The notes beneath the pieces are model-generated. The model ran no database searches and was not told where the DNA came from. It saw nothing but the letters and a program-made list of their open reading frames with translations. From Caerostris darwini (lineage: Eukaryota), in the NCBI GenBank assembly GCA_021605075.1, contig BPLQ01015363.1:771513-835512 (forward strand): DNA of 64,000 nucleotides. Reading direction: 5' to 3'. A program made the position numbers and the translations under genes. The number at the start of each line of letters is the position of its first letter. The first letter of the stretch is position 1. Of this stretch, positions 1 through 63,200 are shown in pieces.

Positions 1-1839
1 GGTAAAATATATACTTTTAAAAATCACTTTTTACCACAGTCAACAAATCAAAGAATTGTGTACCAAATTTAATATAATACAATGATAAGTTATATTTATA
101 AATGAAATAAATTTAAATTTATATTACAATTTTATATATTAAATTTTGAATAATTATACAAAAGACTAGACTGATGATAAATAAATGCAAAATTACTTTT
201 CAATGCAGTGTATACAACAATTAGAAATGATTTATTTTTAAGGACAGTTATTCAATTATGAATAAATGCTTATTAAATATAGAAAATCTATATAAATATT
301 TTTTTAAAAATGCGCTTATTTCGAGGATTGGAGTTCACACAATACATTTATTTTAAATCTATTACATATTTACTAACATTGTAATTTTCAATGAACTAAT
401 ACTATATCAGTATTAAACAGTACATTGAAAATATTTAAAAGAATATATAATAGAATCGAAAGGTACAACATGTCAGCTTTCATCATCATCATTATTAACA
501 GCATTCCTCATTGTACCCAATGGCGGAAAAGGCCTTAAGTTTGCTTCACCCTTCTCCGTGGTCTTATGCAAAGGTGTTTGCACTTTTCAAATGCCAGCTT
601 TAGTTCAACAACAACAACAAAAACATGCTGTGAGTTCCACTAATAGTTTCCGTGCTTGCTGCCCGTTTCGGTTGTTAATATGACTAACATTTATCGAAAT
701 TCTTCTGGTACTTTTATAGATTTAACATTATGCTGTAAGTTATTTGAGATAAAGATTGACATTTTATTGATGTAGGCATTGTTTGTTCGTTGAAGTTGAA
801 CTGGACTCTTTCGAATTTTCTTTTTAATATTAAGCATATGGGATGAAAATTCGTTTAAAGAAATATTAAGAAAATCATTGAGTTTAAAACACGTAATTAC
901 CAAAATTCACGAGGAACTTATAAATAAAGAAATATTGAATGGCAAGCGTAAAAATAAAAATACTGTTGGAAAACAAATTCTAACTTATTACCTGCCACAG
1001 TTTTCTTTCAGTTAAATGTTAATGTGTTTATATTAATTAATATACATTTTATTAAACTCTTTTTTGAAGTAATATCAGCCTTGAACCACAGCAGACAAAC
1101 TAGTTACACAATACTTAGTTGAAAAAGAGGAAGAAAAAAAAATAAAATAGTTATTTTCAGCATCTTTTTCTTTACATCTCTAAGTTTTCGAATTTTGAAA
1201 TTGTGATTTTTTTCCTTCATCATGTAAAATAAGATTGCTATGATTTTTGATTTTGCATTTCATACGAAACGATAAAAAAAAAAGATATGATTAAAACCTT
1301 TGTAAATTGGAAAATTATGATTCATGTTGACTTCGATCATAGTCGAAGGTTGAAAATAAAGATTGTTTTAGAACTTTATAGAGAAAAATATATTTATGAA
1401 ATTCACAATAAATCAATACTATTATCAATTTTAAAGCACAATATTAAAAAATGAAAGTTTCCTTATAAAATAAGTGTTTAACAGGTTTCGTTTTGTTAGA
1501 TTTATTACAAAAAACTAAATTATTTTTTAAAAATACAATTGAATTTAAATAAAAAATGTTATTTTAAGTTAAGTAATACTGTAATTTCCAGCAGCGTACA
1601 ATTTGTAGTCTTAATTTTTGATTTACGGAACTATCTGTTATTGCTTAGTTGGCATTAAAGGCATACATACCTTCCACCAATTAATTTCGTTTGTATTTGT
1701 GGATGAGATCTTAAACTAACATAACATTTTACATATTTTAAGATTGTTTTAGATGCTAAAATAATACAAGTTTGGCAGTCCAAATTCCCCTTCTTGAATT
1801 TCATATTCAAATAAAAAATTAGTCTTATTTATATGCGAG

Positions 1840-2400
1840 GACGTTTACATTGTATTTGAAAATATAAAAGCATATGAACTTTTGAATATGTCTGTCTACA
1901 TGAGTAGTCATGCATTGGTATGTCTATATATTTAGATTTATAAATGCATGAAGATATATATACATTGGTATGAATTTTTTTTTTCAGTGACCATATTTGT
2001 ATGCGTATATTTGTGCATTTTTTATGTAATATATGCTTGTATGTAACGTTTATGTATGTTCGTATGCATATGTATGTATGTATGTATGTTCGTATATATA
2101 TGTATGTATGTTCGTATATGTATGTTCGTATATATATTATGTATGTTCGTATGTGTGTTTGCATGCACTCGTCTATGTGATGCATGCCGGTACGTAATAT
2201 ATACATGTTCGTAATATATGAGCTTATGTAAAGTATGTATACATGCCTGCATACACTATATACATGCATACATACACCCATATATACATTCATACATACA
2301 TACATTTAAAAGATATATATACTCACACATATAAGCAGACACATATACATACTCCCATAAAGACAAATATACATACACATAAGCATAAAAACATACATAT
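1840..2400. repeat. Compound microsatellite or low-complexity tract rich in TATG/GTAT/TACA motifs
   Basis: Runs such as gtatgtatgtatgtatgttcgtatatatatgtatgtatg and catacatacataca are visible directly. Track ORFs 1829..2305 and 2022..2252 are translations of this repeat. Confidence 0.85.
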
Positions 2401-2465
2401 ACAGCAGTGTCAAAGTAAATAATTTTTATTCTTTATTTAAAAAAAATATGCTTGGTTTGGGAGAA

Positions 2466-3110
2466 AGGTAAAAAATGGCTTATTTAAAGTATACGCCATC
2501 ACTAGTCATACGTTCACCACATCTCTCTGGCAATTTGTGGATTTCATCCCAGAAAAACAATACATCTTTTGGAGTGGTTCAGTCATGATGCCATTTTTGG
2601 ACATCTTCCTATTTTGAAGTGTTTCATGGAAAGTGTTGAACTGTTTCATGGAAAGTGCATGAGACATTGATGAAAATAAGTGGTAATCGGAAGGGGTCAA
2701 GTCTGGTGAGTACAGCGAGTGGGGGAAGAGTTTCAAACTAAGAGCAGAAATGATGTCTCTGACATCTTCCGCTGTGTGTGATGGGACGATGCCGTCTTGC
2801 AAAATCAATTTTTCGTTTCTTGTAGTCCATTCTGGTAGCTATTCGATTAATACATGGTTTAAATTAATCATTTGTTGACGTTATCGAATGGTATTAAAAG
2901 TTTCATCTGTTTTCAGAAGCTCATGGTCATTTCGGTCATTTCCGGTTGTCCTGGACATTCTTTGCTTTTCAAGTCGAAATCACCACTTTCGAATCGTTTA
3001 AACCAACGCACACAAACGACTTCAGTTGGGACATTGTCACTATAAATTTCCACATGTATCACTCTCGTTTTTCCTTTGAATGAACAAGGAAAACCGTACC
3101 GAAATTACTC
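2466..3110 (-). mobile_element. Internally deleted mariner-like element; transposase pseudogene fragment
   Basis: The minus-strand translation of about 2935-3105 reads ...VRWFKRFESGDFDLKSKECPGQPEM..., which matches the conserved mariner N-terminal motif WFKRFxSGDFDLEDKERSGRP. Minus-strand ORF 2506..2808 contains LFPHSLYSPDLTPSDYHLFSSM..., which matches the mariner C-terminal signature LPHPPYSPDLAPSDYHLF. The central catalytic region is missing and there are stops and frameshifts between the two parts. The 5' end abuts the microsatellite that begins at about 3130. Confidence 0.8.
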
Positions 3111-3129
3111 TTGATTTGGCTCAAACTTC

Positions 3130-3700
3130 GATATGTTTACCACACAAAGTACATATAACGTATATACAGGCAAATATACACACATAGGCATATTATACAC
3201 ATCTATGTATATACAGACATTTATATACTCACATACATACAGATATATATTCACACACACATACAGATACACATACAGACACGCATATAGACACGCATAT
3301 ATACGGACATACTTTTGCACATATATATACAAACATATACTTAAAAAAAGCATGCACACATATGATTATTCTTTTACATGTACATACAGGGGCGCATTAG
3401 TATACATAAAAATTCGATCATACATAAATTTACATGCGCCTATATACGCATGCCTACATACTTACGCATGCTTTACGTATACTGATGTATCACATGTTAC
3501 GTATATTACATACATTCAAATATAAAAACAAGCATGCATACATATATACATGCTCTCATACAAACATACAAACTCTCGTATAGATATGCGTACATTCGAA
3601 CATACATATGCTTGCATACATAAATATACATACAATACACACACACACATAAATTGTATATAAACATACGGGCTCACTGAAATAGATGCAGATTAATGTA
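3130..3700. repeat. Compound microsatellite rich in ACAT/ATAC/CACA motifs
   Basis: Example run: acatacagatacacatacagacacgcatatagacacgcatat. Track ORFs 3133..3525, 3105..3359 and 3556..3741 lie inside it and are repeat translations. Confidence 0.85.
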
Positions 3701-23806: not shown

Positions 23807-25017
23807 CACTGAAGTGACAAAAGTCATGAGATAGCAATATGCAAATTTTCAGATGGCAGTAGCATCGCGTAGAACAGGTATAAATGCGCAGTGCTTTCGC
23901 AGAGCTTTCATTTCTGTTCAAGTTATTCATGTGAAGAGGTTTTGACGTGATGATGACCGCACGACGGAAATTAACAGACTTTGAACGCGGAATGTTAGTT
24001 GGAGCTAGACGCATGGGACATGCCATTTCGGAAATCGTTAGGGAATTCAACATTTCCAGATCCACTGTGTCAAGAGTGTGCCGAGAGTATGAAATTTCAG
24101 GCATAACATCCCACCATGGACAGCGCAGTGGTCGACCGCCTGCACTTAACGACCGAGACGTCTGCGAAGACTCGTAAATTCTAACAGACAAGCAACACTG
24201 CGTCAAATAACCGCAGAAATCAATGTGGAACGTACAAGGGACTTGTCTGTTAGAACTGTGCGGAGAAATTTGGCTTTCTTGGGCTATTCCAGCAGAAGAC
24301 CGACTCGAGTGCCTTTACTGACAGAACGACATCGCTTGCAGCGACTCTCGTGGGCACGTGAGCATATCGGTTGGTCCCTAGATGAATGGAAAACCGTGGC
24401 CTGGTCCGATGAGTCACGATTTCAGTTGGTAAGAGCTGATGGTAGGGTTCGAGTGTGGCGCAGACCCCACGAAGCCATGGACCCAAACTGTCAGCAAGGC
24501 ACTGTTCAAGCTGGTGGTGGCTCCGTAATGGTGTGGGCTGATTTTTCATGGCATGGACTTGGTCCTCTGGGGCGACTGGACCGAACATTGACTGGAAATG
24601 CTTATGTTCAGCTACTTGGAGATCACTTGCAGCCATTCATGGAATTCATGTACCCAAACAACGATGGGATTTTTATGGATGACAATGCGCCATGTCACCG
24701 GGCCACAACTGTTCGCGATTGGTTTGAAGAACATTCTGGACAATTCCAACGAATGATCTGGCCACCTAGATCGCCCGATATGAATCCCATCGAGCATTTA
24801 TGGGACATCATCGAGAGGTCTGTTCATGCCCAAAATCCTGCACCATAAACGCTTTCACAATTATGGACGTCTATCGAGACAGCATGGCTCAATATTCCTG
24901 TAGAAGACTTCCAACGACTTGTTGAGTCCATGCCACGTCGAGTTGCTGCCCTTCGCCGGGCGAAAGGAGGGCCGACACGATATTAAGAGGTATCCCATGA
25001 CTTTTGTCACTTCAGTG
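23807..25017 (+). mobile_element. Tc1-like (Tc1/mariner superfamily) DNA transposon, nearly full length, flanked by TA
   Basis: There are perfect terminal inverted repeats of about 24-27 bp: cactgaagtgacaaaagtcatg at 23807 and catgacttttgtcacttcagtg ending at 25017. TA dinucleotides sit on both flanks (23805-06 and 25018-19). The internal region encodes a DD34E transposase. Confidence 0.9.
23950..24986 (+). pseudogene. Tc1-family DD34E transposase, inactivated by one frameshift (about 24150-24165) and one in-frame TAA (24846-24848)
   Basis: Segment 1 reads MMTARRKLTDFERGMLVGARRMGHAISEIVREFNISRSTVSRVCREYEISG...RSGRPPALNDRD, which is a paired-like HTH. After the frame change, the sequence continues RRLVNSNRQATLRQITAEINVERTRDLSVRTVRRNLAFLGYSSRRPTRVPLLTERHRLQRLSWAREH...WSDESRF...VMVWADFSWHGLGPL...MDDNAPCHRA...WPPRSPDMNPIEHLWD.... 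After the in-frame TAA, the same frame continues TLSQLWTSIETAWLNIPVEDFQRLVESMPRRVAALRRAKGGPTRY*. Conserved catalytic D (WSDESRF), D (DDNAPCH) and E (NPIEHLW) motifs are all present. Confidence 0.85.
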
Positions 25018-43765: not shown

Positions 43766-44083
43766 ATGGTTTCTCCTCTCCTGATCTTCGTTCTTTTTGC
43801 TGTGGCAGTTCAATCTTCACCGACTAGCTATCAGCCCTTTAATGCAATTAAGCAAATTTCTGACATAGGAAACAATCTGGATCCCCTCCTTGAAACGGCT
43901 AACCGAAAAGCCTTGCAGAACAATAAGATACTTGATTGCGATATGGAAGAAATCTTGAAGACAGTGGGTTTGAATGAATTACAGAATCTCATTGAAGCTG
44001 TAGCATCTAGAAAAGGAACCAATCCATTTGCAATAATGAAGATGCTTTACAAAAGGATGAAAAGCCACGAAGAAATTGAAGAA
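43766..44083 (+). CDS. Exon 1 (ATG exon) of a candidate secreted-protein gene: signal peptide plus 106 aa
   Basis: ATG in the context cgaaataATGg. The N-terminus MVSPLLIFVLFAVAVQSSPTS is hydrophobic and signal-peptide-like. The exon ends ...HEEIEE at a GAAGAA|GTAAGA donor (GT at 44084-85), phase 0. An upstream polypyrimidine tract and CAG acceptor at 43705-06 suggests a further 5' UTR exon. Confidence 0.55.
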
Positions 44084-46190: not shown

Positions 46191-46736
46191 TTTTAATAGC
46201 ATCAATTAAACTTCCTTTGCCTTTAATTAATATATCTTACCTTCTCTAATTTAAAATATGGTTAAAATTAAAGAAGTGAAAAAACGTGATATGAAAATAA
46301 TTTTAAACAAATTATAACTGGTTGAAATAAGCTAAAATCAATACATCTCAGGGTAATGAACTCATGCATTAAATACGAAAACGAATTATTTGGGAAGAAA
46401 ATAAATTATTTGGGAAGAAAATGAATGTCTAATACGTCAACAACGAATATACAACAATTTTGCAACAATTCCTTAAATTAAATTGGTTTAATTAATACAA
46501 AAAATCTATGTAATTTAATCTTAAGTCTTCATTTTTTAAAAACATCGTTAAATTGATCTTATTTTAAAGATAATCTAATTGAAGAGACGATTAAAAGAGG
46601 TTGGTACGAATTTCTTTATCACTTTTTACCCCTTACATTCTTAACGATATTTAAAATAATTTTTTTCATCTTTCCTTACAGAATTTAATGATTTCTCTTG
46701 ACGGTATTCCTCTTCCTGATCTTTCGAGCTCACCAG

Positions 46737-47033
46737 TTATCGAGACCCCTCCTCAAGCAAAAATCCCCCCCGGCTGTCGGCCACACCCCCTATTCCTTAC
46801 CCTCAAACGATCCGATGAGTACTAATGACGAAGAAGACACCAAAGTCGTTATCATCCCAGTTGCTCCCGAAGCTCCAACACAAAATAGATTCCCGCCAGC
46901 GGTTGTGCCAGATATAAAAATAAAGAACGAAGCACCTTTTATAATTGGACCACCTGTAGCAAAGATGAACCATGTGTTACCAGTTTTTCCTGTATTGTCT
47001 CCAATGAAAAGCAACCATTTAAGACCTCCTCCA
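46737..47033 (+). CDS. Exon 2 of the candidate gene: 99 codons, proline-rich (LSRPLLKQKSPPAVGHTPYSLPSNDPMSTNDEEDTKVVIIPVAPEAPTQNRFPPAVVPDIK...HLRPPP)
   Basis: Acceptor ttcctcttcctgatctttcgagctcaccag|tta. The exon is open in frame for 297 bp in DNA that is about 70% A+T, and it is locally GC-enriched. Donor CCA|GTAAGT has its GT at 47034-35. The exon is phase 0 at both ends. The exact acceptor is uncertain; an alternative AG lies at 46680-81, but an in-frame stop follows it. Confidence 0.5.
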
Positions 47034-48042
47034 GTAAGTATTATTGATTTATCCATAATTATAAAATTTATTATCATTAAGATGCTAAACTAGGGTTTTA
47101 AATGAAAATTGCTAAAACCTATTATTACAATCTGTATGACGGTCAGTAATTTGCGGTTTACCCTTAGCTGTGGTTTATAATTACCAATATTAAACTCGAC
47201 AGAGATGAAATTGGTAACTTTGATAAATAATGCTATCATTTATATACTTAACTAGTGTTAAATACTTAAAAAAAATTGCTGTTTTTATTTAAGTAAATTA
47301 TTGTTTTTTATATCTTTTTTACATTCTAATGCTCATTGTATTTGTTACTTCTTAAAAATTTGTATCTGTTAAGGCTCAGATACTCGAAATATTTTAATTA
47401 ATTAATATTTTAGATAATTTATTAATAGAAATTACCTTATTTTTCATTATATTTGAAATTTATATTGCTAGTGGTCATTTTGACTTGATGTTATAACAGA
47501 CCTACTTGGTGCTTCTTTATTAAAAACCCCAACTGTATTTTAAACAAAATATTGTATAGTATCAGATAATTTATATAGGGATATATTTATACAAATATGA
47601 CAGTAGGTTGTAATAAAAATAATTTAATTTAAAATGTTTAAATTTTAATATAAATACATGCGATATTATAAATTTTAAATTATTTGTTTGCTTCGCCGTT
47701 GATTGTTGTTCGATTAAGCATCGTAAATTACTAATAAAAATATTTATAAAAAGTGTTGGTACATATTTTACTCTAATCAAAAATTACTGGCTGGATTAAA
47801 GATACATTTTGAGTAAGGGAAAATATTACTATAATTAATGTTACTACTGTCCATAATAGTTGCAAGTTTAACAATATATGTATGCATGTATATATATATA
47901 TATATATAAAGAGGCTTTAAGTTTTAATGATGAGTAGAAATTATTATTATAACACACTGGAAATTAAATTTATCGCATATTTTATGTCAGATTTCTAAAT
48001 TATAAGATATTCATTTTTCCTATTTATCTTTTTTTTTTTTAG

Positions 48043-48315
48043 CTTGGAGCAACTGTTCGAATCAATTCTGGTGATGCCCGAAACCCAGTTAACCGCGACA
48101 TCAGTGTTACAGTGTCTCCTTTGATGACCATCATAGAAGCTTTACGCCAAGCTGAAATCAAATATCAAAACGTTCTCGGTCTTCATCATGATATGGATGT
48201 TATTACTTTCACCCACTCATTAGCTATTGATTGTTACATAGTTAACCGCATCAACGATGTAGTCAAAAGTGATGACTCGGGTTGGAAAATCACCATCATG
48301 GATCGTGATGGTCAA
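48043..48315 (+). CDS. Exon 3 of the candidate gene: 91 codons (LGATVRINSGDARNPVNRDISVTVSPLMTIIEALRQAEIKYQNVLGLHHDMDVITFTHSLAIDCYIVNRINDVVKSDDSGWKITIMDRDGQ)
   Basis: Acceptor tcttttttttttttag|ctt (AG at 48041-42). The frame is open across the whole exon. Donor CAA|GTAAGT has its GT at 48316-17. Phase 0 at both ends, consistent with exon 2. Confidence 0.55.
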
Positions 48316-49054
48316 GTAAGTTAATTTTTAACTGTCTTAAGTTTCTTAACAATAAGTTGTTTTAATATGCTCTAGCAGTGGTTCTCAAATTATGGGAAAC
48401 GACGTATCTTTTACAGATAAAAGTCTTAAATAAGAGAAGGATCAACAAAATTAATATGAAAAAAAAATTGGTGTATATAAACTTCAATTATTATGCAATT
48501 ACTAATAATTAAACTCTGATTGATAGTAAATTAAAGTTATTAAAAACTCTTATTTTTTAACAACAATGTATTTATGCGAGAATGGCTTTTTTCTTATTTT
48601 TCTGCTATTATACCGAAAATCAAAACAATGCGTTTCTTAAAAGTCTATTAATAACTTTGTGATTATGCACCAGACTGAAAAACCCACTTACTTAATTTTA
48701 AAGCAATCTACCCACTACTTTAATGACTGATGACAACAAATTATTATTAATGGCAGCAAATTATTATTATTAACTGGTTAATTATTTTTTGCAGTAAGAA
48801 AACAATTAATAGCTGTTAGGTTTCGCTATATTTTAGTACAATTGAGTAATTGGAACTAATAAGAACAATTTGATATTTTAATTATTTAATTATTCATGCA
48901 TTTCTAATGCAAAAACGTTGAATATAAAATTTTATTGTTACTATTATATTTAATACGAGGGAAGTTATATCTGCCTAAAGGCAGCACTATGGTAATTTGT
49001 TTGAGTACAGTTGTATTGCGCTACCTACCCTAGCCAATTTCGATCATTTGATTC

Positions 49055-49300
49055 CGAGAATGATGCTAATACTGAGCTCTGGTACTCAATAATGATGAAT
49101 GGTAGGCTATTTGAGTGATTTTTGTGTAATAAAATGCTTTTCGGAATGATGCTAATACTAAGCACCGATGCACGGTAATGATGAATGTTATTGTATTCCA
49201 GCGATTTTCGTTTCAACAAATGCTTCTCAGAATTATGCTAGTTCTAAGTTCGGATGCATGATAATGGTGAATAGTGTGATAATGATAATGGTGAATAGTA
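49055..49300. repeat. Tandem repeat with a unit of about 75 bp in about 3 copies, located 400 bp upstream of the 5S gene
   Basis: ttccgagaatgatgctaatactgagctctggtactcaataatgatgaatgg..., then ttcggaatgatgctaatactaagcaccgatgcacggtaatgatgaatg..., then tcagaattatgctagttctaagttcggatgcatgataatggtgaatag. Confidence 0.75.
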
Positions 49301-49695
49301 ATAAGTGTGAAATCTATTTCACAAATTATTTTATTCATGGAAGCATTTAGAAAGGTATTAAAATCGGGTCATTTTTTAAAAATTTAATCATCCGTATGAT
49401 TGGAATCGCATCCAAGTTGAAAATTCCGTTGTCCAGTAGCCAGTTAGCGAACTCAATAGAATCTTGATCCGGAGAGTATTTTGCGTTAAGATTTAAAATA
49501 TATAAATATGGATCGCAACCACCCCACTTTTAAGATAAAATTCGCAAAAGATTTCTCTGGGTTTCACTTGATGAAATGAAATCCATTGGCTTCACCTTTT
49601 CAATTGCTGGGCAAACGTGAGCAGCAAAGGGAGAAAAAATAATGTTGGAAAAATTCTCGTCAGTAAAGTTGTATATATATATAAAATATAAAGAC

Positions 49696-49814
49696 TCCAA
49701 CGGCCGTACCATGCTGAATATACCGGTTCTCGTTAGATCACCGAAGTTAAGCATCATTGGGCGCGGTCAGTACTTGGGTGGGTGACCACCTGGGAACACT
49801 GCGTGCCGTTGGCA
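49696..49814 (+). rRNA. 5S ribosomal RNA gene or orphon, about 119 nt
   Basis: tccaacggccgtaccatgctgaatataccggttctcgttagatcaccgaagttaagcatcattgggcgcggtcagtacttgggtgggtgaccacctgggaacactgcgtgccgttggc matches the eukaryotic 5S consensus throughout. Helix I pairs ccaacggc with gccgttgg. Box A is AGTTAAGC, the intermediate element is GGTCAGTAC and box C is TGGGTGGGTGACCACCTGGG. An upstream AT-rich TATA-like tract (tatatatataaaatataa) lies at about -30 to -10, as required by insect 5S promoters. No oligo-T terminator follows the gene; instead there is aaattt and then a SINE. Confidence 0.8.
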
Positions 49815-49819
49815 AATTT

Positions 49820-50102
49820 GGGACCTGAATGGCCGAGTGTCTAGCGCTCTGGCGCTCGGTGCCACAGGTTTCGGGTTCGAATCCCGGCGGTGCCATGGAT
49901 GTTGTAGTGGTTCGGAATCCACTTTAAGCCGTAGGTCCCGGTCTTCTATGACTGTAAGAGCGTCACGGAGCAAAAGTCAGGCTTCTACCTACGGGGTGCT
50001 CCATCACAACAGAAGCTGCTTCCTTCCCCTTCAATCATGAGTCCATATGGGCTCGTGGGCTTGGCCAGCCAAGTGGGATAAGAAACAACAAACAACAACA
50101 AA
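49820..50102 (+). mobile_element. tRNA-derived SINE, copy d (tRNA-like head, conserved core, 3' module B, ending in a (CAA)n-like tail)
   Basis: gggacctgaatggccgagtgtctagcgctctggcgctcggtgccacaggtttcgggttcgaatcccggcggtgccatggatgttgtagtggttcggaatccactttaagccgtaggtcccggtct...aacaacaaacaacaacaaa. The head and core match copies c, f and i. The 3' body differs from module A of copies c and f. Track ORFs 49767..49973 and 49837..50040 lie within this GC-rich element and are rejected. Confidence 0.8.
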
Positions 50103-50363
50103 TATAGAGACACTTGAAAATGCATTATTGAGAATAATAAAATTTTATGTTAAATTTAAGTAAGGATGTTGTCAATAATTTCGACAATATTAAGTAAATT
50201 GTTTTTCAGCAGTTATAGCTTCTTAGACTTATTTTTCCAATTTAAATTAGGGAATTTTCACTCTTAACCTCAGTCTTTTATAAGGGATGTTTATATCCTA
50301 GGAATTAAATAAGTTATTGTTTCAATGAATGTCTAAAATGTATTTGTGAATTTTTATTATAAC

Positions 50364-50416: not shown

Positions 50417-51220
50417 GTTCTCTTGAAAATGAATTTTATCTCCTAGTAAAGAATTAACTATCAAAAATAATTTCGATTTAAGTTCAAGTTAATTTTAAAT
50501 AAACGATTTGCTAACTTTTTAGAAAAAATAAATTGATTATAATATTTTCTTAATATTAACTTAGAAAATAGTAGGCTAATTAAAAGTTTTTTAATTATTA
50601 TAATAGTGGTCAATATAACTCATAAAATTAAAATATAATAGCCCGTATTTTTTAATGAAACTATGAAGATAAATTTAAATGGCTTCGAATTATTTTAACT
50701 CAATTTTTGTCAATGGATCCTTGGTCTTTTTTATCAATGGTTCTTTTTAGTTAATTCAAAAATAAAAATTAATTAATTAATTAAAAAAATTGAAATTGAT
50801 ATTTTGAAAGCGTAAAACAACTCATTTTTCGCATCAATATTTTAATTATTTTTTTGTCAACAATAAAAAACAACTATATACCGTAATTGGAGTAAAGTTT
50901 TTTTTAAATACGCCTTTTATTTAGGATATAATAAATCTCTTTTGATAAAAGGAAGGCTATAAAGAAAAAAAATAACAATTTACAACTAATAATAATGCTA
51001 CCATAAATCCGATTTCTTTTTTTGTCAATTAACCATTTAAAAGAAAGAAAATTATTCACATGGTGTAGTCGATTTCAAAATACAGAAAGATTTCATTCGC
51101 AAAAAACTGTAACTATGCTTGTACGGAAGTATGACAATTTCATAGGTGCAGAAATAATGTCAATAGGTGCAAAGGTGCACTATTCCAATTTTAGACTACA
51201 ATTACTCATTTTCATTTAAT

Positions 51221-51504
51221 TGTTGTTCTAATGCAGTTGACAATGCAGAGACAGTTAATCTTTATGCCATAAAAAACGCTAACCGCTTTACTCATTTAGC
51301 ACTAACAAGGAGCACGCGTAGCTTGAAGATATGCTACGGACGCGAGCAACACTACCCCACAATGCTCTACAATTATATTAGACTGGGACCTATGGTTTAA
51401 AATTGATTTCGAACCACTACAAACATTCATGACATCGCCGGGACTCGAACCCGAAAGCTGTGGTACCGAGCGCCAGAGCGCTAGCCACTCGGCCATCAAG
51501 CCCC
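51221..51504 (-). mobile_element. tRNA-derived SINE, copy c (full length, module A), flanked by a 15-bp target-site duplication
   Basis: The reverse complement reads ggggcttgatggccgagtggctagcgctctggcgctcggtaccacagctttcgggttcgagtcccggcgatgtcatgaatgtttgtagtggttcgaaatcaattttaaaccataggtcccagtctaatat...tagtgctaaatgagtaa...cataaagattaactgtctctgcattgtcaactgcattagaacaacaa. The direct repeat tcattttcatttaat occurs at 51206-51220 and again at 51505-51519. Confidence 0.85.
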
Positions 51505-51786
51505 TCATTTTCATTTAATTAAAAATGTAAAATTAATAGGTTATTATAATAACTAAAAAATTGTTAAGCAATATTATTTCAATAATTAAAAAATTTTTTT
51601 AGCGCGCAATAGGAAACATTATTACAGATACAATGGGCAAAATATGCGCGCTAGAGGAAAAAATAACGATAAAATGCGGTATGTAAAAACTCTCTAATAT
51701 GTGAAGGATATTTGTTTAATGAAAGATATGGTAGTCTCATAACATAAGAGGTGCAATTTCGGTAATACATATTGAATGGGACACTT

Positions 51787-53142: not shown

Positions 53143-53430
53143 GGGCCTGATGGCCGAGTGGCTTGCGCTCGGTACCATGAGTTTTGGGTTCGAGTTCGGA
53201 GGTGCCATGGATGTTTATAGTGATTCATAATCTACTTTAAACCGTAGATTCCGGTCTAATATGATCATAGAGCGTTGTGGGGGAAGTGTTACTCGCGTTC
53301 GTAACATATCTTCAAGATACACGCTCCCCTGGGTAGTGCTAAATGAGTAACAGTGGTGCAGTCCTTGCTTATAGCATAAAGATTAACTGTATCTGCATTG
53401 CCAGCTGAATTAGAACAAACAACATAACAC
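53143..53430 (+). mobile_element. tRNA-derived SINE, copy f (full length, module A), ending 65 bp upstream of the acceptor of terminal exon 4
   Basis: gggcctgatggccgagtggcttgcgctcggtaccatgagttttgggttcgagttcggaggtgccatggatgtttatagtgattcataatctactttaaaccgtagattccggtctaatatgatcatagagcgttgtggggg...gggtagtgctaaatgagtaacagtggtgcagtccttgcttatagcataaagattaactgtatctgcattgccagctgaattagaacaaacaacataacac. Confidence 0.85.
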
Positions 53431-53494
53431 CCATTCATAAATGTTTTTGATTCATGCTAAAATATTTTACTTAATTTTATACTTTTTCTTTCAG

Positions 53495-53584
53495 ATTGTT
53501 TACGATGGTTTCTGTCTGCCGAATGCAAAAGATGTTTTGGTGAAACCAGGAACAGTGATTTACTTGTCTTACGTTTCCCTGTAG
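53495..53584 (+). CDS. Terminal exon 4 of the candidate gene: IVYDGFCLPNAKDVLVKPGTVIYLSYVSL* (29 codons plus TAG)
   Basis: Acceptor actttttctttcag|att (AG at 53493-94), phase 0. The stop codon TAG is at 53582-84. AATAAA polyadenylation signals lie downstream at 53666-71 and 53827-32. Confidence 0.5.
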   Translation: MVYDGFCLPNAKDVLVKPGTVIYLSYVSL

Positions 53585-58169: not shown

Positions 58170-59690
58170 GTCATTAATTTAAGAAGTTTTGAGTAAATTA
58201 TCTCATTATTTACCCCTTTCCATGGAAATCCACTCCTCTATCGTAACAAGAAAAAAATAAGAGCCTATACTTACGTTTTTTAAGAGATATGGTCCACATT
58301 TATATGACTCGACATTGTTGTTTTTTACTGTTAAAAAACACCCTCCCAAAACCAACAATGTATAATCATGATGACAATGTGTAGTATTGTTCACCCATTT
58401 TATTTTGGCACTAATTAAGAGAAGGAAACGTATAGATTGAAAGGCATCGACAAAACAAAGCTTTAAATTTCTTTCCTTTTTATATAGGGCTCACAAATGC
58501 TCAAAGTGATTTTATAATATGTTTTAGCGTTGTATGTTTTTCATTATTTGTCCTAACAGATATATTTTCTAACTGTCATGTAATGATTTCAACAAGCCTA
58601 TAACGTTTTAAAATAACCTAATTAGATTTAAATTATCTTATTTATTTATTTACACAATACCATGGAGATCAACTCCTCTACCTTAACAAGAAAATAAAAG
58701 AAATAAGAGTCTATACTTATGTTTTTAAGAGATATGACCCACATTTATATGACTCGACATTGTTGTTTTTTACTATTAAAAAAAACACCTTCACAAAACC
58801 AACAATGAAGAATCATGATGACAATGTGTAGCACTGGTCACCCATTTTATTGGCACTAGTTAAGAGAAGGAAACGTATAGATTGAAAAACATTGAAAAAA
58901 TAAAACTTTAAATTTCTTTTTTTTTTATATAAGGCTCACAATTGCTCAAATTGCTTTTATTATATTTTTTAGTGTTATACGTTTTTCATTATTTGTTCTA
59001 ATATACATATTTTCTAACTGTCATGTAAAGATTTAAAATAGCTTAATTAGATGTAAATTATGTTATTCATTTATTTAGTTATCTCCTTATTTACACAGTA
59101 CCATGGAGATCACCTCCTCTACCTGAACAAGAAAAAAAAAGAAATTAGAACCTATGCTTATGTTTTTTAAGAGATATGGCCCACATTTATATGATTTTCC
59201 ATTGATGTTGTTTATTATTAAGAGACACAGTCACAAAACCAACAATGTAGAATCATGATGATAATGTGTAATATTGGTCACTCATTTTATTGGCACTGAA
59301 AGATTGTATAGATTGAAAAACATTGAAAAGAAAAAACTTTAAATTTCTTTTTTTCTATAGGGTTCAGAATTGCTCAAGCGGCCTGGTGGTCAATTGGCTT
59401 GCTCTCTGGCCTTTGGTACCACAGGTTCGAATCCTGGCGGTGGCATGGATGCTTGTTAGTGGTTCGGAATCCACGTTTAATTGTAGGTCCCGGTCTAATT
59501 AGGTCACGGAGCTACAAACCAAATTACATTTGCTCAAATTGATTTTATATGCTTTAGTTTTATACGTTTTTCATTATTTGTTCTAATAAATAAAGTTTCT
59601 AACTGTCATATAAAGATTTTAACTAGCCTATAACGTATTAAAACAACCTAATGAGATGTAAATTATTTTATTCATTTATTTTATCTTAGA
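58170..59690. repeat. Satellite with a unit of about 440 bp in about 3.3 copies; the third copy is interrupted by SINE copy i
   Basis: Unit landmarks: catggaaatccactcctctatcgtaacaag at 58221, catggagatcaactcctctaccttaacaag at 58661 and catggagatcacctcctctacctgaacaag at 59103. Throughout, the copies share gagatatggcccacatttatatgactcgacattgttgtttttt...aaaaccaacaatg(t/a)a(t/g)aatcatgatgacaatgtgtag...cattttattggcact...ctaactgtcatgtaaagatt. Track ORF 58206..58394 is rejected. Confidence 0.85.
59378..59527 (+). mobile_element. tRNA-derived SINE, copy i (head and core, 3'-truncated), inserted into the 440-bp satellite with a target-site duplication of about 10 bp
   Basis: gcggcctggtggtcaattggcttgctctctggcctttggtaccacaggttcgaatcctggcggtggcatggatgcttgttagtggttcggaatccacgtttaattgtaggtcccggtctaattaggtcacggagctacaaaccaaattac. 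It is flanked by aattgctcaa at 59368-77 and atttgctcaa at 59528-37. The undisrupted satellite copy 2 reads caattgctcaaattg, which shows the pre-insertion sequence. Confidence 0.85.
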
Positions 59691-62496: not shown

Positions 62497-63200
62497 TCCT
62501 TCACACAAGTTAATTAATGTTAATTCACTAAAGTAATGTAATTTATGTTAATTCACACAGGTTATGTTATTTCACACAAGTTAATTAATGTTAATTCACT
62601 AAAGTAATGTAATTTATGTTAATTCACACAGGTTATGTTATTTCACACAAGTTAATTAATGTTAATTCACTAAAGTAATGTAATTTATGTTAATTCACGC
62701 AGGTTATGTTATTTCACACAAGTTAATTAATGTTAATTCACTAAAGTAATGTAATTTATGTTAATTCACACAGGTTATGTTATTTCACACAAGTTAATTA
62801 ATGTTAATTCACTAAAGTAATGTAATTTATGTTAATTCACACAGGTTATGTTATTTCACACAAGTTAATTAATGTTAATTCACTAAAGTAATGTAATTTA
62901 TGTTAATTCACGCAGGTTATGTTATTTCACACAAGTTAATTAATGTTAATTCACTAAAGTAATGTAATTTATGTTAATTCACACAGGTTATGTTATTTCA
63001 CACAAGTTAATTAATGTTAATTCACTAAAGTAATGTAATTTATGTTAATTCACACAGGTTATGTTATTTCACACAAGTTAATTAATGTTAATTCACTAAA
63101 GTAATGTAATTTATGGTAATTCACACAGGTTATGTTAATTCACACAAGTAATGTTATTTCACACAAGTAATGTTAATTCACACAAGTTATTCACACAATG
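62497..63200. repeat. Satellite with a 71-bp unit in about 10 copies
   Basis: The unit cacacaagttaattaatgttaattcactaaagtaatgtaatttatgttaattcacacaggttatgttattt begins at 62502, 62573, 62644 and so on, and degenerates by about 63130-63200. Track ORFs 62171..62536 and 62305..62508 overlap it and are rejected. Confidence 0.9.

Follow-up and report, generated by a model that had tools for sequence, protein, structure and literature searches.

Chimeras in which a small RNA is fused to a retroelement have been described in several forms. Bipartite retrocopies of the U6/L1, 5S rRNA/L1 and small RNA/Alu types are credited to Buzdin et al. (2003), as cited in PMC3272025, and a human census lists small RNAs, among them 5S rRNA, joined to LINE-1 3′ ends and flanked by 7–15-bp duplications, the 5S part being usually truncated and antisense (bioRxiv 10.1101/2025.02.02.635956). 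5S sequences also occur as heads of SINEs. For HaSE3 in Helicoverpa, a template switch from a tRNA-derived SINE RNA to 5S rRNA has been proposed (PMC3272025), and the same switch is put forward for vertebrate SINE heads made of 5S and a partial tRNA (PMC4824008, there attributed to Nishihara 2006). The table of 5S-derived SINEs in a 2024 review covers fish, mammals and insects and has no arachnid entry (PMC10946416); the paper on the Caerostris darwini genome is silent on SINEs and rRNA (PMC9170102).

Here we describe a 5S rRNA sequence that is joined almost directly to a SINE in the spider C. darwini. The stretch analysed, called the window below, comprises 64,000 nucleotides (assembly GCA_021605075.1, contig BPLQ01015363.1, positions 771,513–835,512 of the forward strand), and all coordinates refer to its first letter. 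An earlier note, made from the sequence alone, had seen at this place a 5S gene with a SINE where its terminator should be, and had offered three options: a SINE inserted into or next to the resident terminator, a 5S–SINE chimaera propagating as a composite element, or a dispersed 5S orphon. The reading that we favour, with a probability of roughly one half, is that 5S and SINE were inserted as one unit by a single LINE-mediated (target-primed) retrotransposition and thus form a bipartite chimeric retrocopy.

Results

A full-length 5S rRNA copy in an intron

The earlier note had proposed scoring the 5S sequence against Rfam, and the 119 nt from 49696 to 49814 (+) indeed match RF00001 over model positions 1–120 with 98.3 bits (E = 3e-20; gathering score 38). 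No other Rfam hit in the 64-kb window exceeds its threshold, and a permissive scan of the same 64 kb returned no second, degenerate 5S at E ≤ 1, in agreement with the description of the 5S as a single copy outside an array. Box A, the intermediate element (IE) and box C are present (49744–49793), and the predicted fold has the three arms of a 5S rRNA (−47.8 kcal/mol, z = −2.9). The further statement that it matches the consensus throughout is right as to length and to these boxes but goes too far otherwise: two pairs in the helices are disrupted (U1 faces C118, and C19 the U at about position 60) and the conserved CAUA of loop A reads CGUA. The first base is a T where a purine is expected, and the score lies about 11 bits under that of genuine 5S genes (about 110 bits in unrelated eukaryotes, the yardstick being eukaryotic contaminant loci from a prokaryotic genome collection).

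A degenerate 30-mer of the 5S, run against the prokaryotic genome collection, retrieved three eukaryotic contaminant loci, which are only 83% identical. Two contigs are eukaryotic contamination in this public resource: CAXXDF010000012.1 (L002/L003, labelled as an Opitutales MAG) contains a eukaryotic rDNA unit with 18S, 5.8S, 28S and a linked 5S, and DUZW01000065.1 (L001, labelled as a Deltaproteobacteria MAG) is eukaryotic and has a 5S adjoining six tRNA genes.

A high Rfam score and an intact internal control region are what a functional dispersed 5S rRNA gene under selection, with the SINE beside it by chance, would present; the AT-rich tract upstream and a CpG observed/expected ratio of about 1.0 at the locus agree with this as well. 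The two broken pairs and the changed loop-A base do not, and are as expected of a neutral retrocopy. We return to this alternative after the flanks and the orthologous loci have been considered.

The position in intron 3 of a protein-coding gene on the same strand, as the earlier note had it, is borne out by tblastn with orthologous proteins, which finds exons at 43766–44083, 46679 to about 47045, 48043–48318 and 53492–53581 (all +) and so puts the unit between 48318 and 53492. Exon 3, after which intron 3 begins, is 82–87% identical to P0001–P0004 of the CDAR_118651 orthologue family, and exon 4, before which the intron ends, is the last of the gene. The exons are 100% identical to C. darwini CDAR_118651 (P0006), and 57–61% identical to the other orb-weaver orthologues. 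Two more SINE copies are housed in the same intron. Exon 2 of the host gene shows a frame shift at a C7 homopolymer (AAAAATCCCCCCCGG, 46760–46800), with the tblastn pieces 46679–46798 and 46767–47045 in different frames; the deposited CDAR_118651 model (153 aa, compared with about 350 aa in orthologues) keeps to the first frame until this ends in a stop, and is without exons 3 and 4. Either the assembly is wrong at the homopolymer, or the frameshift is real and the host gene a pseudogene.

The joint between 5S and SINE

The 5S ends at 49814 and the SINE starts at 49820 in the same orientation, with the five bases AATTT (49815–49819, +) between them (junction GCCGTTGGCAAATTTGGGACCTGAATGG; in its 40-nt form, GTGCCGTTGGCAAATTTGGGACCTGAATGGCCGAGTG). 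The spacer is therefore as short as had been reported, but one base shorter than the aaattt given in the earlier note. Shortly after the 3′ end of the 5S there is only its T3 (49817–49819). No T4 was found within 49696–50142 (+), and the first T4 run downstream of 5S base 1, a potential RNA polymerase III (Pol III) terminator, lies only at 50143–50146 (+), so that the terminator reported as missing is indeed missing. In two unrelated eukaryotic 5S genes a T-run is found 0–12 nt past the 3′ end. A final T3 fits termination of Pol III within the T-run of a terminator, and AATTT is probably the trailer retained at the 3′ end of a 5S primary transcript that had been terminated in this way but not processed.

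A complete tRNA-type SINE and its relatives

The SINE, here called copy d, has a tRNA-like head (49820–49895, +) that is complete to its 5′ terminal G-run, with box A TGGCCGAGTGT at 49830–49840 and box B GGTTCGAATCC at 49874–49884. A tRNA-like covariance match to the head is weak (49845–49894, 25.9 bits); the Rfam tRNA model gives no match to copy d at E ≤ 1, and ARAGORN calls no tRNA on the SINE. The head is followed by a conserved body (49896–49961, +), which blastn also finds in five other copies of the window, by a 3′ module (49962–50079, +) without blastn match in the window, and by an (AAC/AACA)n simple-repeat tail AAGAAACAACAAACAACAAC (50080–50099, +; in fuller form AAGAAACAACAAACAACAAC(AAA), which moves the end to between about 50099 and 50102).

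The five other copies are 74–84% identical to copy d over head and body (blastn-aligned parts: c51, 51510–51364, −; c11, 11606–11503, −; c59, 59387–59496, +; c53, 53162–53264, +; c55, 55787–55711, −). The most telling of them is c51, which lies in the same intron and has no 5S head. Around its conserved core, the whole c51 element, in the region 51200–51545 (−), is flanked by a perfect 16-nt duplication (16/16, ATTAAATGAAAATGAG), which shows that the machinery mobilising this SINE family makes long duplications and that the family was active recently. With box A and box B, six dispersed copies, the duplication around c51 and a simple-repeat tail, the family has the features of a tRNA-derived SINE. 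A LINE was not recognised in the window.

The c51 duplication also fixes the 5′ terminus of the family at the G-run GGG(G/A)C(C/T)TGA. At this same G-run c51, c53, c11 and c59 start as copy d does, and five unrelated database ORFs with SINE heads diverge into differing flanks at the same 5′ point; this shared start and point of divergence indicate that copy d lacks nothing at the 5′ end of its SINE part. The idea that the other copies are 5′-truncated 5S-headed elements was ruled out by the common start of c51, c53, c11 and c59. At the other end the copies are less uniform. The tail type of copy d recurs in c51 (gaacaacaa) and c53 (gaacaaacaaca), which share one 3′ module; it is neither the one in copy d nor the one in c11, c59 and c55. 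These differences amount to at least three tail modules on one SINE head and body, and copy d, whose module has no counterpart in the window, belongs by this token to a different subfamily from the neighbouring copies.

The window contains further repeats. The tandem repeat that the earlier note had placed 400 bp upstream of the 5S (about 75 bp, three copies) is real, and spans 49057–49272 with a period of 86, 2.5 copies and 75% matches. A 445-bp unit is repeated 2.5 times (84% matches) at 58251–59354 and stops about 20–30 nt before SINE copy c59 (59375–59500), and a 71-bp tandem array with 9.2 copies and 98% identity occupies 62500–63149, inside or beside an ORF-like stretch. The CA/TA-rich simple repeat at 1800–3650 gives rise to spurious long ORFs (YIHTYI...); matches to mir-297 and mir-466 in this region were rejected as repeat artefacts (30–44 bits, with gathering scores of 85–90). 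Among DNA transposons, a nearly intact Tc1-family element (23947–24950, +; Pfam DDE_3 and HTH_Tnp_Tc3_2) encodes a transposase that can be rebuilt to 347 aa across two or three disruptions. It is 94% identical to the database protein P0008 (42 member sequences), matches C. darwini CDAR_86611 and, along part of its length, is 86% identical to a Stegodyphus mimosarum protein. Lastly, the ORF at 2506–2808 (−) carries a mariner-like C-terminal motif, as judged by eye (SPDLTPSDYHLF), and no Pfam match at E ≤ 0.01; it is probably a decayed mariner remnant.

A direct repeat brackets both parts

A 12-nt direct repeat, absent from the earlier note, brackets 5S and SINE together. Its upstream copy AAATATAAAGAC (49684–49695, +) ends exactly at base 1 of the 5S, its downstream copy AAATATAGAGAC (50100–50111, +) abuts the SINE tail, and the two agree in 11 of 12 positions. 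Allowing one mismatch, the two strands of the window (128 kb) together contain five occurrences of the 12-mer, these two included, with a mean of 2.97 in shuffled sequence, and the probability that a copy would by chance lie no more than about 13 nt from the end of the tail is about 3e-4. A looser test, in which either end could be displaced by up to 6 nt and which drew on real window sequence including its tandem repeats, returned 251 of 20,000 random site pairs (1.3%). It counts against a single insertion that this repeat is short and imperfect (one mismatch) and that its surroundings are AT-rich, as does the T in place of a purine at the first base of the 5S; a chance match of the two 12-mers is unlikely, with a p of about 0.01 under the loosest test. 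That the repeat is part of a larger duplication was considered and dismissed, the flanks past the 12-mers sharing only (TA)n.

The best repeat around the SINE alone is CAAATTT/CAAATAT with 6 of 7 matches, a score reached by about 16% of random pairs and hence not significant. With a 12-nt repeat around the whole unit and none comparable around the SINE alone, 5S, linker and SINE most likely entered together. In addition, both parts have the same orientation, the 5S extends to its own 5′ terminus, and the SINE closes with a retroelement tail. The TATA-like tract upstream, which the earlier note had listed with the boxes of the 5S, is on this evidence largely AT-rich target site, its last 12 nt being the duplicated target itself.

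The converse order of events, in which a lone 5S orphon or retrocopy came first and the SINE later inserted at a TTT/AAA site just 3′ of it, thereby destroying or displacing the terminator, has some features in its favour: ...AATTT|AAATAT... is a good AT-rich endonuclease target, the weak 6/7 repeat does flank the SINE, and a full-length insertion is the norm. However, that repeat is of a kind common by chance, whereas c51 has a 16-nt duplication, and removal of the SINE gives back only AATTTATATAG and no T4 terminator. The 12-nt repeat would then have to be a coincidence, or the SINE would have landed exactly between the trailer and an older duplication while making none itself; moreover, a tail-less 5S would have had to be retroposed alone in a way that is unexplained. 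We consider this sequence of two events unlikely, and less parsimonious than the insertion of a single unit. Among the options of the earlier note, the 5S–SINE chimaera thus came closest, the insertion of a SINE into a resident terminator is disfavoured, the SINE alone having no better repeat than the 6/7 one in a family that makes a 16-nt duplication in the same intron, and the term dispersed 5S orphon applies only in the sense of a retrocopy, as the target-site duplication shared with the SINE marks joint retroposition.

If the unit entered in a single event, the 5S is most likely a retropseudogene and not a resident gene stripped of its terminator. No terminator would ever have stood at the locus, and it would be absent because none was brought along with the retrocopy. 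In the mechanism that we propose, a LINE endonuclease would have nicked the AT-rich site AAATATA(A/G)AGAC in intron 3, and reverse transcription of the SINE RNA would have run from the (AAC)n tail to its extreme 5′ end. The reverse transcriptase would then have jumped, end to end, from the 5′ end of the SINE RNA to the 3′ end of a free unprocessed 5S transcript (...GGCA-AAUUU-3′) and copied this through to base 1, and integration with a 12-nt staggered cut would have produced the flanking duplication. The empty site before insertion would accordingly have held a single AAATATARAGAC in the context ...TATAAAATATARAGACACTTGAAAATG..., without 5S or SINE.

Orthologous loci and the search for further copies

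At the orthologous loci of Trichonephila clavata, Larinioides sclopetarius, Argiope bruennichi (two assemblies) and Nephila pilipes we found no 5S and no homologue of the unit or of the other SINE copies, and the search of an unrelated locus of Araneus ventricosus had the same outcome. Four SINE queries had no blastn hits in 186 kb from five other araneoid species. The comparison is one with other genera, whose introns are not alignable; judged by these sequences, the insertion, and the SINE family as far as sampled (~186 kb), is specific to the Caerostris lineage. In the orthologous locus of T. clavata, an intronic stretch (L004, 14207–14277, +) matches the tRNA model with 33.4 bits (threshold 29) and could be an unrelated tRNA-derived SINE.

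For a functional 5S gene under selection, the lack of a 5S at the orthologous locus of four other orb-weaver species adds to the defects in helices and loop A. The sequence has neither a T4+ close to its 3′ end, with about 450 nt free of a terminator, nor a place in a tandem array or conservation of the locus; it is a single intronic copy bracketed by a target-site duplication. We regard a functional gene as very improbable.

The alternative that deserves more attention is a propagating composite SINE family, in which the chimaera arose earlier and elsewhere and the present copy is an ordinary daughter insertion. Its master would consist of 5S, AATTT and tRNA-type SINE, be transcribed from the type-1 Pol III promoter of the 5S, read through the weak T3 and be mobilised via the SINE tail. 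The anatomy of the unit and its duplication as a whole fit this reading equally well. As no T4 intervenes from 5S base 1 to the tail, a 5S-initiated transcript would carry the entire SINE and its tail. None of the five headless copies has the 3′ module of copy d, a difference that hints at a separate lineage; this private module is also the point at which a single event loses ground, as it fits a separate, possibly 5S-headed family just as well. A random 64-kb window is, moreover, a priori more apt to include a member of a multi-copy family than a chimaera that exists only once, and 5S-headed families have precedents in SINE3, AmnSINE1, HaSE3, MEG and Ped-1 (PMC3272025, PMC10946416).

On the other side, a 5S heads only one of the window's six SINE copies, and the permissive scan (E ≤ 1) showed no degenerate remnant at the others. 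A 5S promoter that has been retroposed is considered to have little activity where upstream signals are lacking (PMC3272025, citing Kapitonov and Jurka 2003), and the known 5S-SINEs keep a partial tRNA-related region and no complete second promoter head (PMC4824008). Searches of sequence collections gave no second copy, a result of little weight for collections that probably do not include this genome. In JGI metagenome contigs, which probably lack C. darwini, an exact scan found neither a second 5S–SINE junction nor a match to a 30-mer of the 5S. The minus-strand ORF across the junction (49750–49923) had no candidates in a word-index search of 5.8 billion proteins, an index that is again probably without this genome. 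HMMER against 1.84 billion representatives gave five hits to the SINE-head part only, followed by unrelated flanks; none continues into the 5S, which counts for little as the ORF has only 49 aa. Taken together, we regard a composite family as a live alternative, though a less probable one than a single event.

Discussion

Reading the locus as one retrotransposed unit changes its annotation: it is a retrocopy and not a 5S gene that lacks its terminator, and should not be counted as rDNA. A chimeric retrocopy is a known kind of by-product, and has also been proposed as the first step in the birth of 5S-headed SINEs. What the locus would add is a clean and nearly undecayed case of this event from outside mammals and insects, in which both partners are complete and the probable trailer of the primary transcript is preserved at the joint. 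Complete partners with a trailer between them indicate that the putative LINE partner of this SINE in spiders can jump between templates end to end.

Should further copies exist, a SINE family would have been caught at the acquisition of a new promoter. It is conceivable, although we lean against it, that Caerostris harbours a young 5S-headed composite SINE lineage, of which this locus is a member or the founder, and which would have kept the whole 5S, the trailer of its transcript and an entire tRNA-type head, with two Pol III promoters in tandem. A transcript initiated at the 5S would in that case read past the T3 as far as the T4 at 50143 and so include the tail on which mobilisation depends. 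Such a lineage would be the first 5S-SINE in a chelicerate and an otherwise unobserved intermediate in the birth of elements of the SINE3/AmnSINE1/HaSE3 type.

Among described systems, dispersed 5S orphons and pseudogenes resemble the locus in being lone copies outside arrays with few disabling substitutions; here, in contrast, the signature of retroposition is shared with the adjoining SINE. Closer are the LINE-mediated bipartite retrocopies, which likewise have a small Pol III RNA 5′ of a retroelement 3′ part and a single target-site duplication at an AT-rich site, and for which a template switch during target-primed reverse transcription has been proposed. The human L1 chimeras differ in host and in partner, as the 3′ part in the spider comes from a complete tRNA-type SINE that ends in (AAC)n instead of from an L1 or poly(A) element. 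They differ also in their 5S part, which is full-length and in sense orientation in C. darwini, and the predominance of truncated and antisense 5S parts in human is a point against carrying the single-event reading over without reserve.

With HaSE3 and AmnSINE1/SINE3 the locus has in common a 5S head with boxes A, IE and C that is joined to a tRNA-SINE body and tail, and a template switch as the proposed origin. Whereas HaSE3 (body and tail) and the vertebrate heads (5S and partial tRNA) are multi-copy and retain only part of a tRNA-derived SINE, the Caerostris unit, known from one copy, has its 5S (119 nt) and its tRNA-type head, with both boxes, in complete form, and a transcript-like trailer between them. 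With both of its partners complete, the locus is what a template switch from SINE to 5S is predicted to yield as its primary product.
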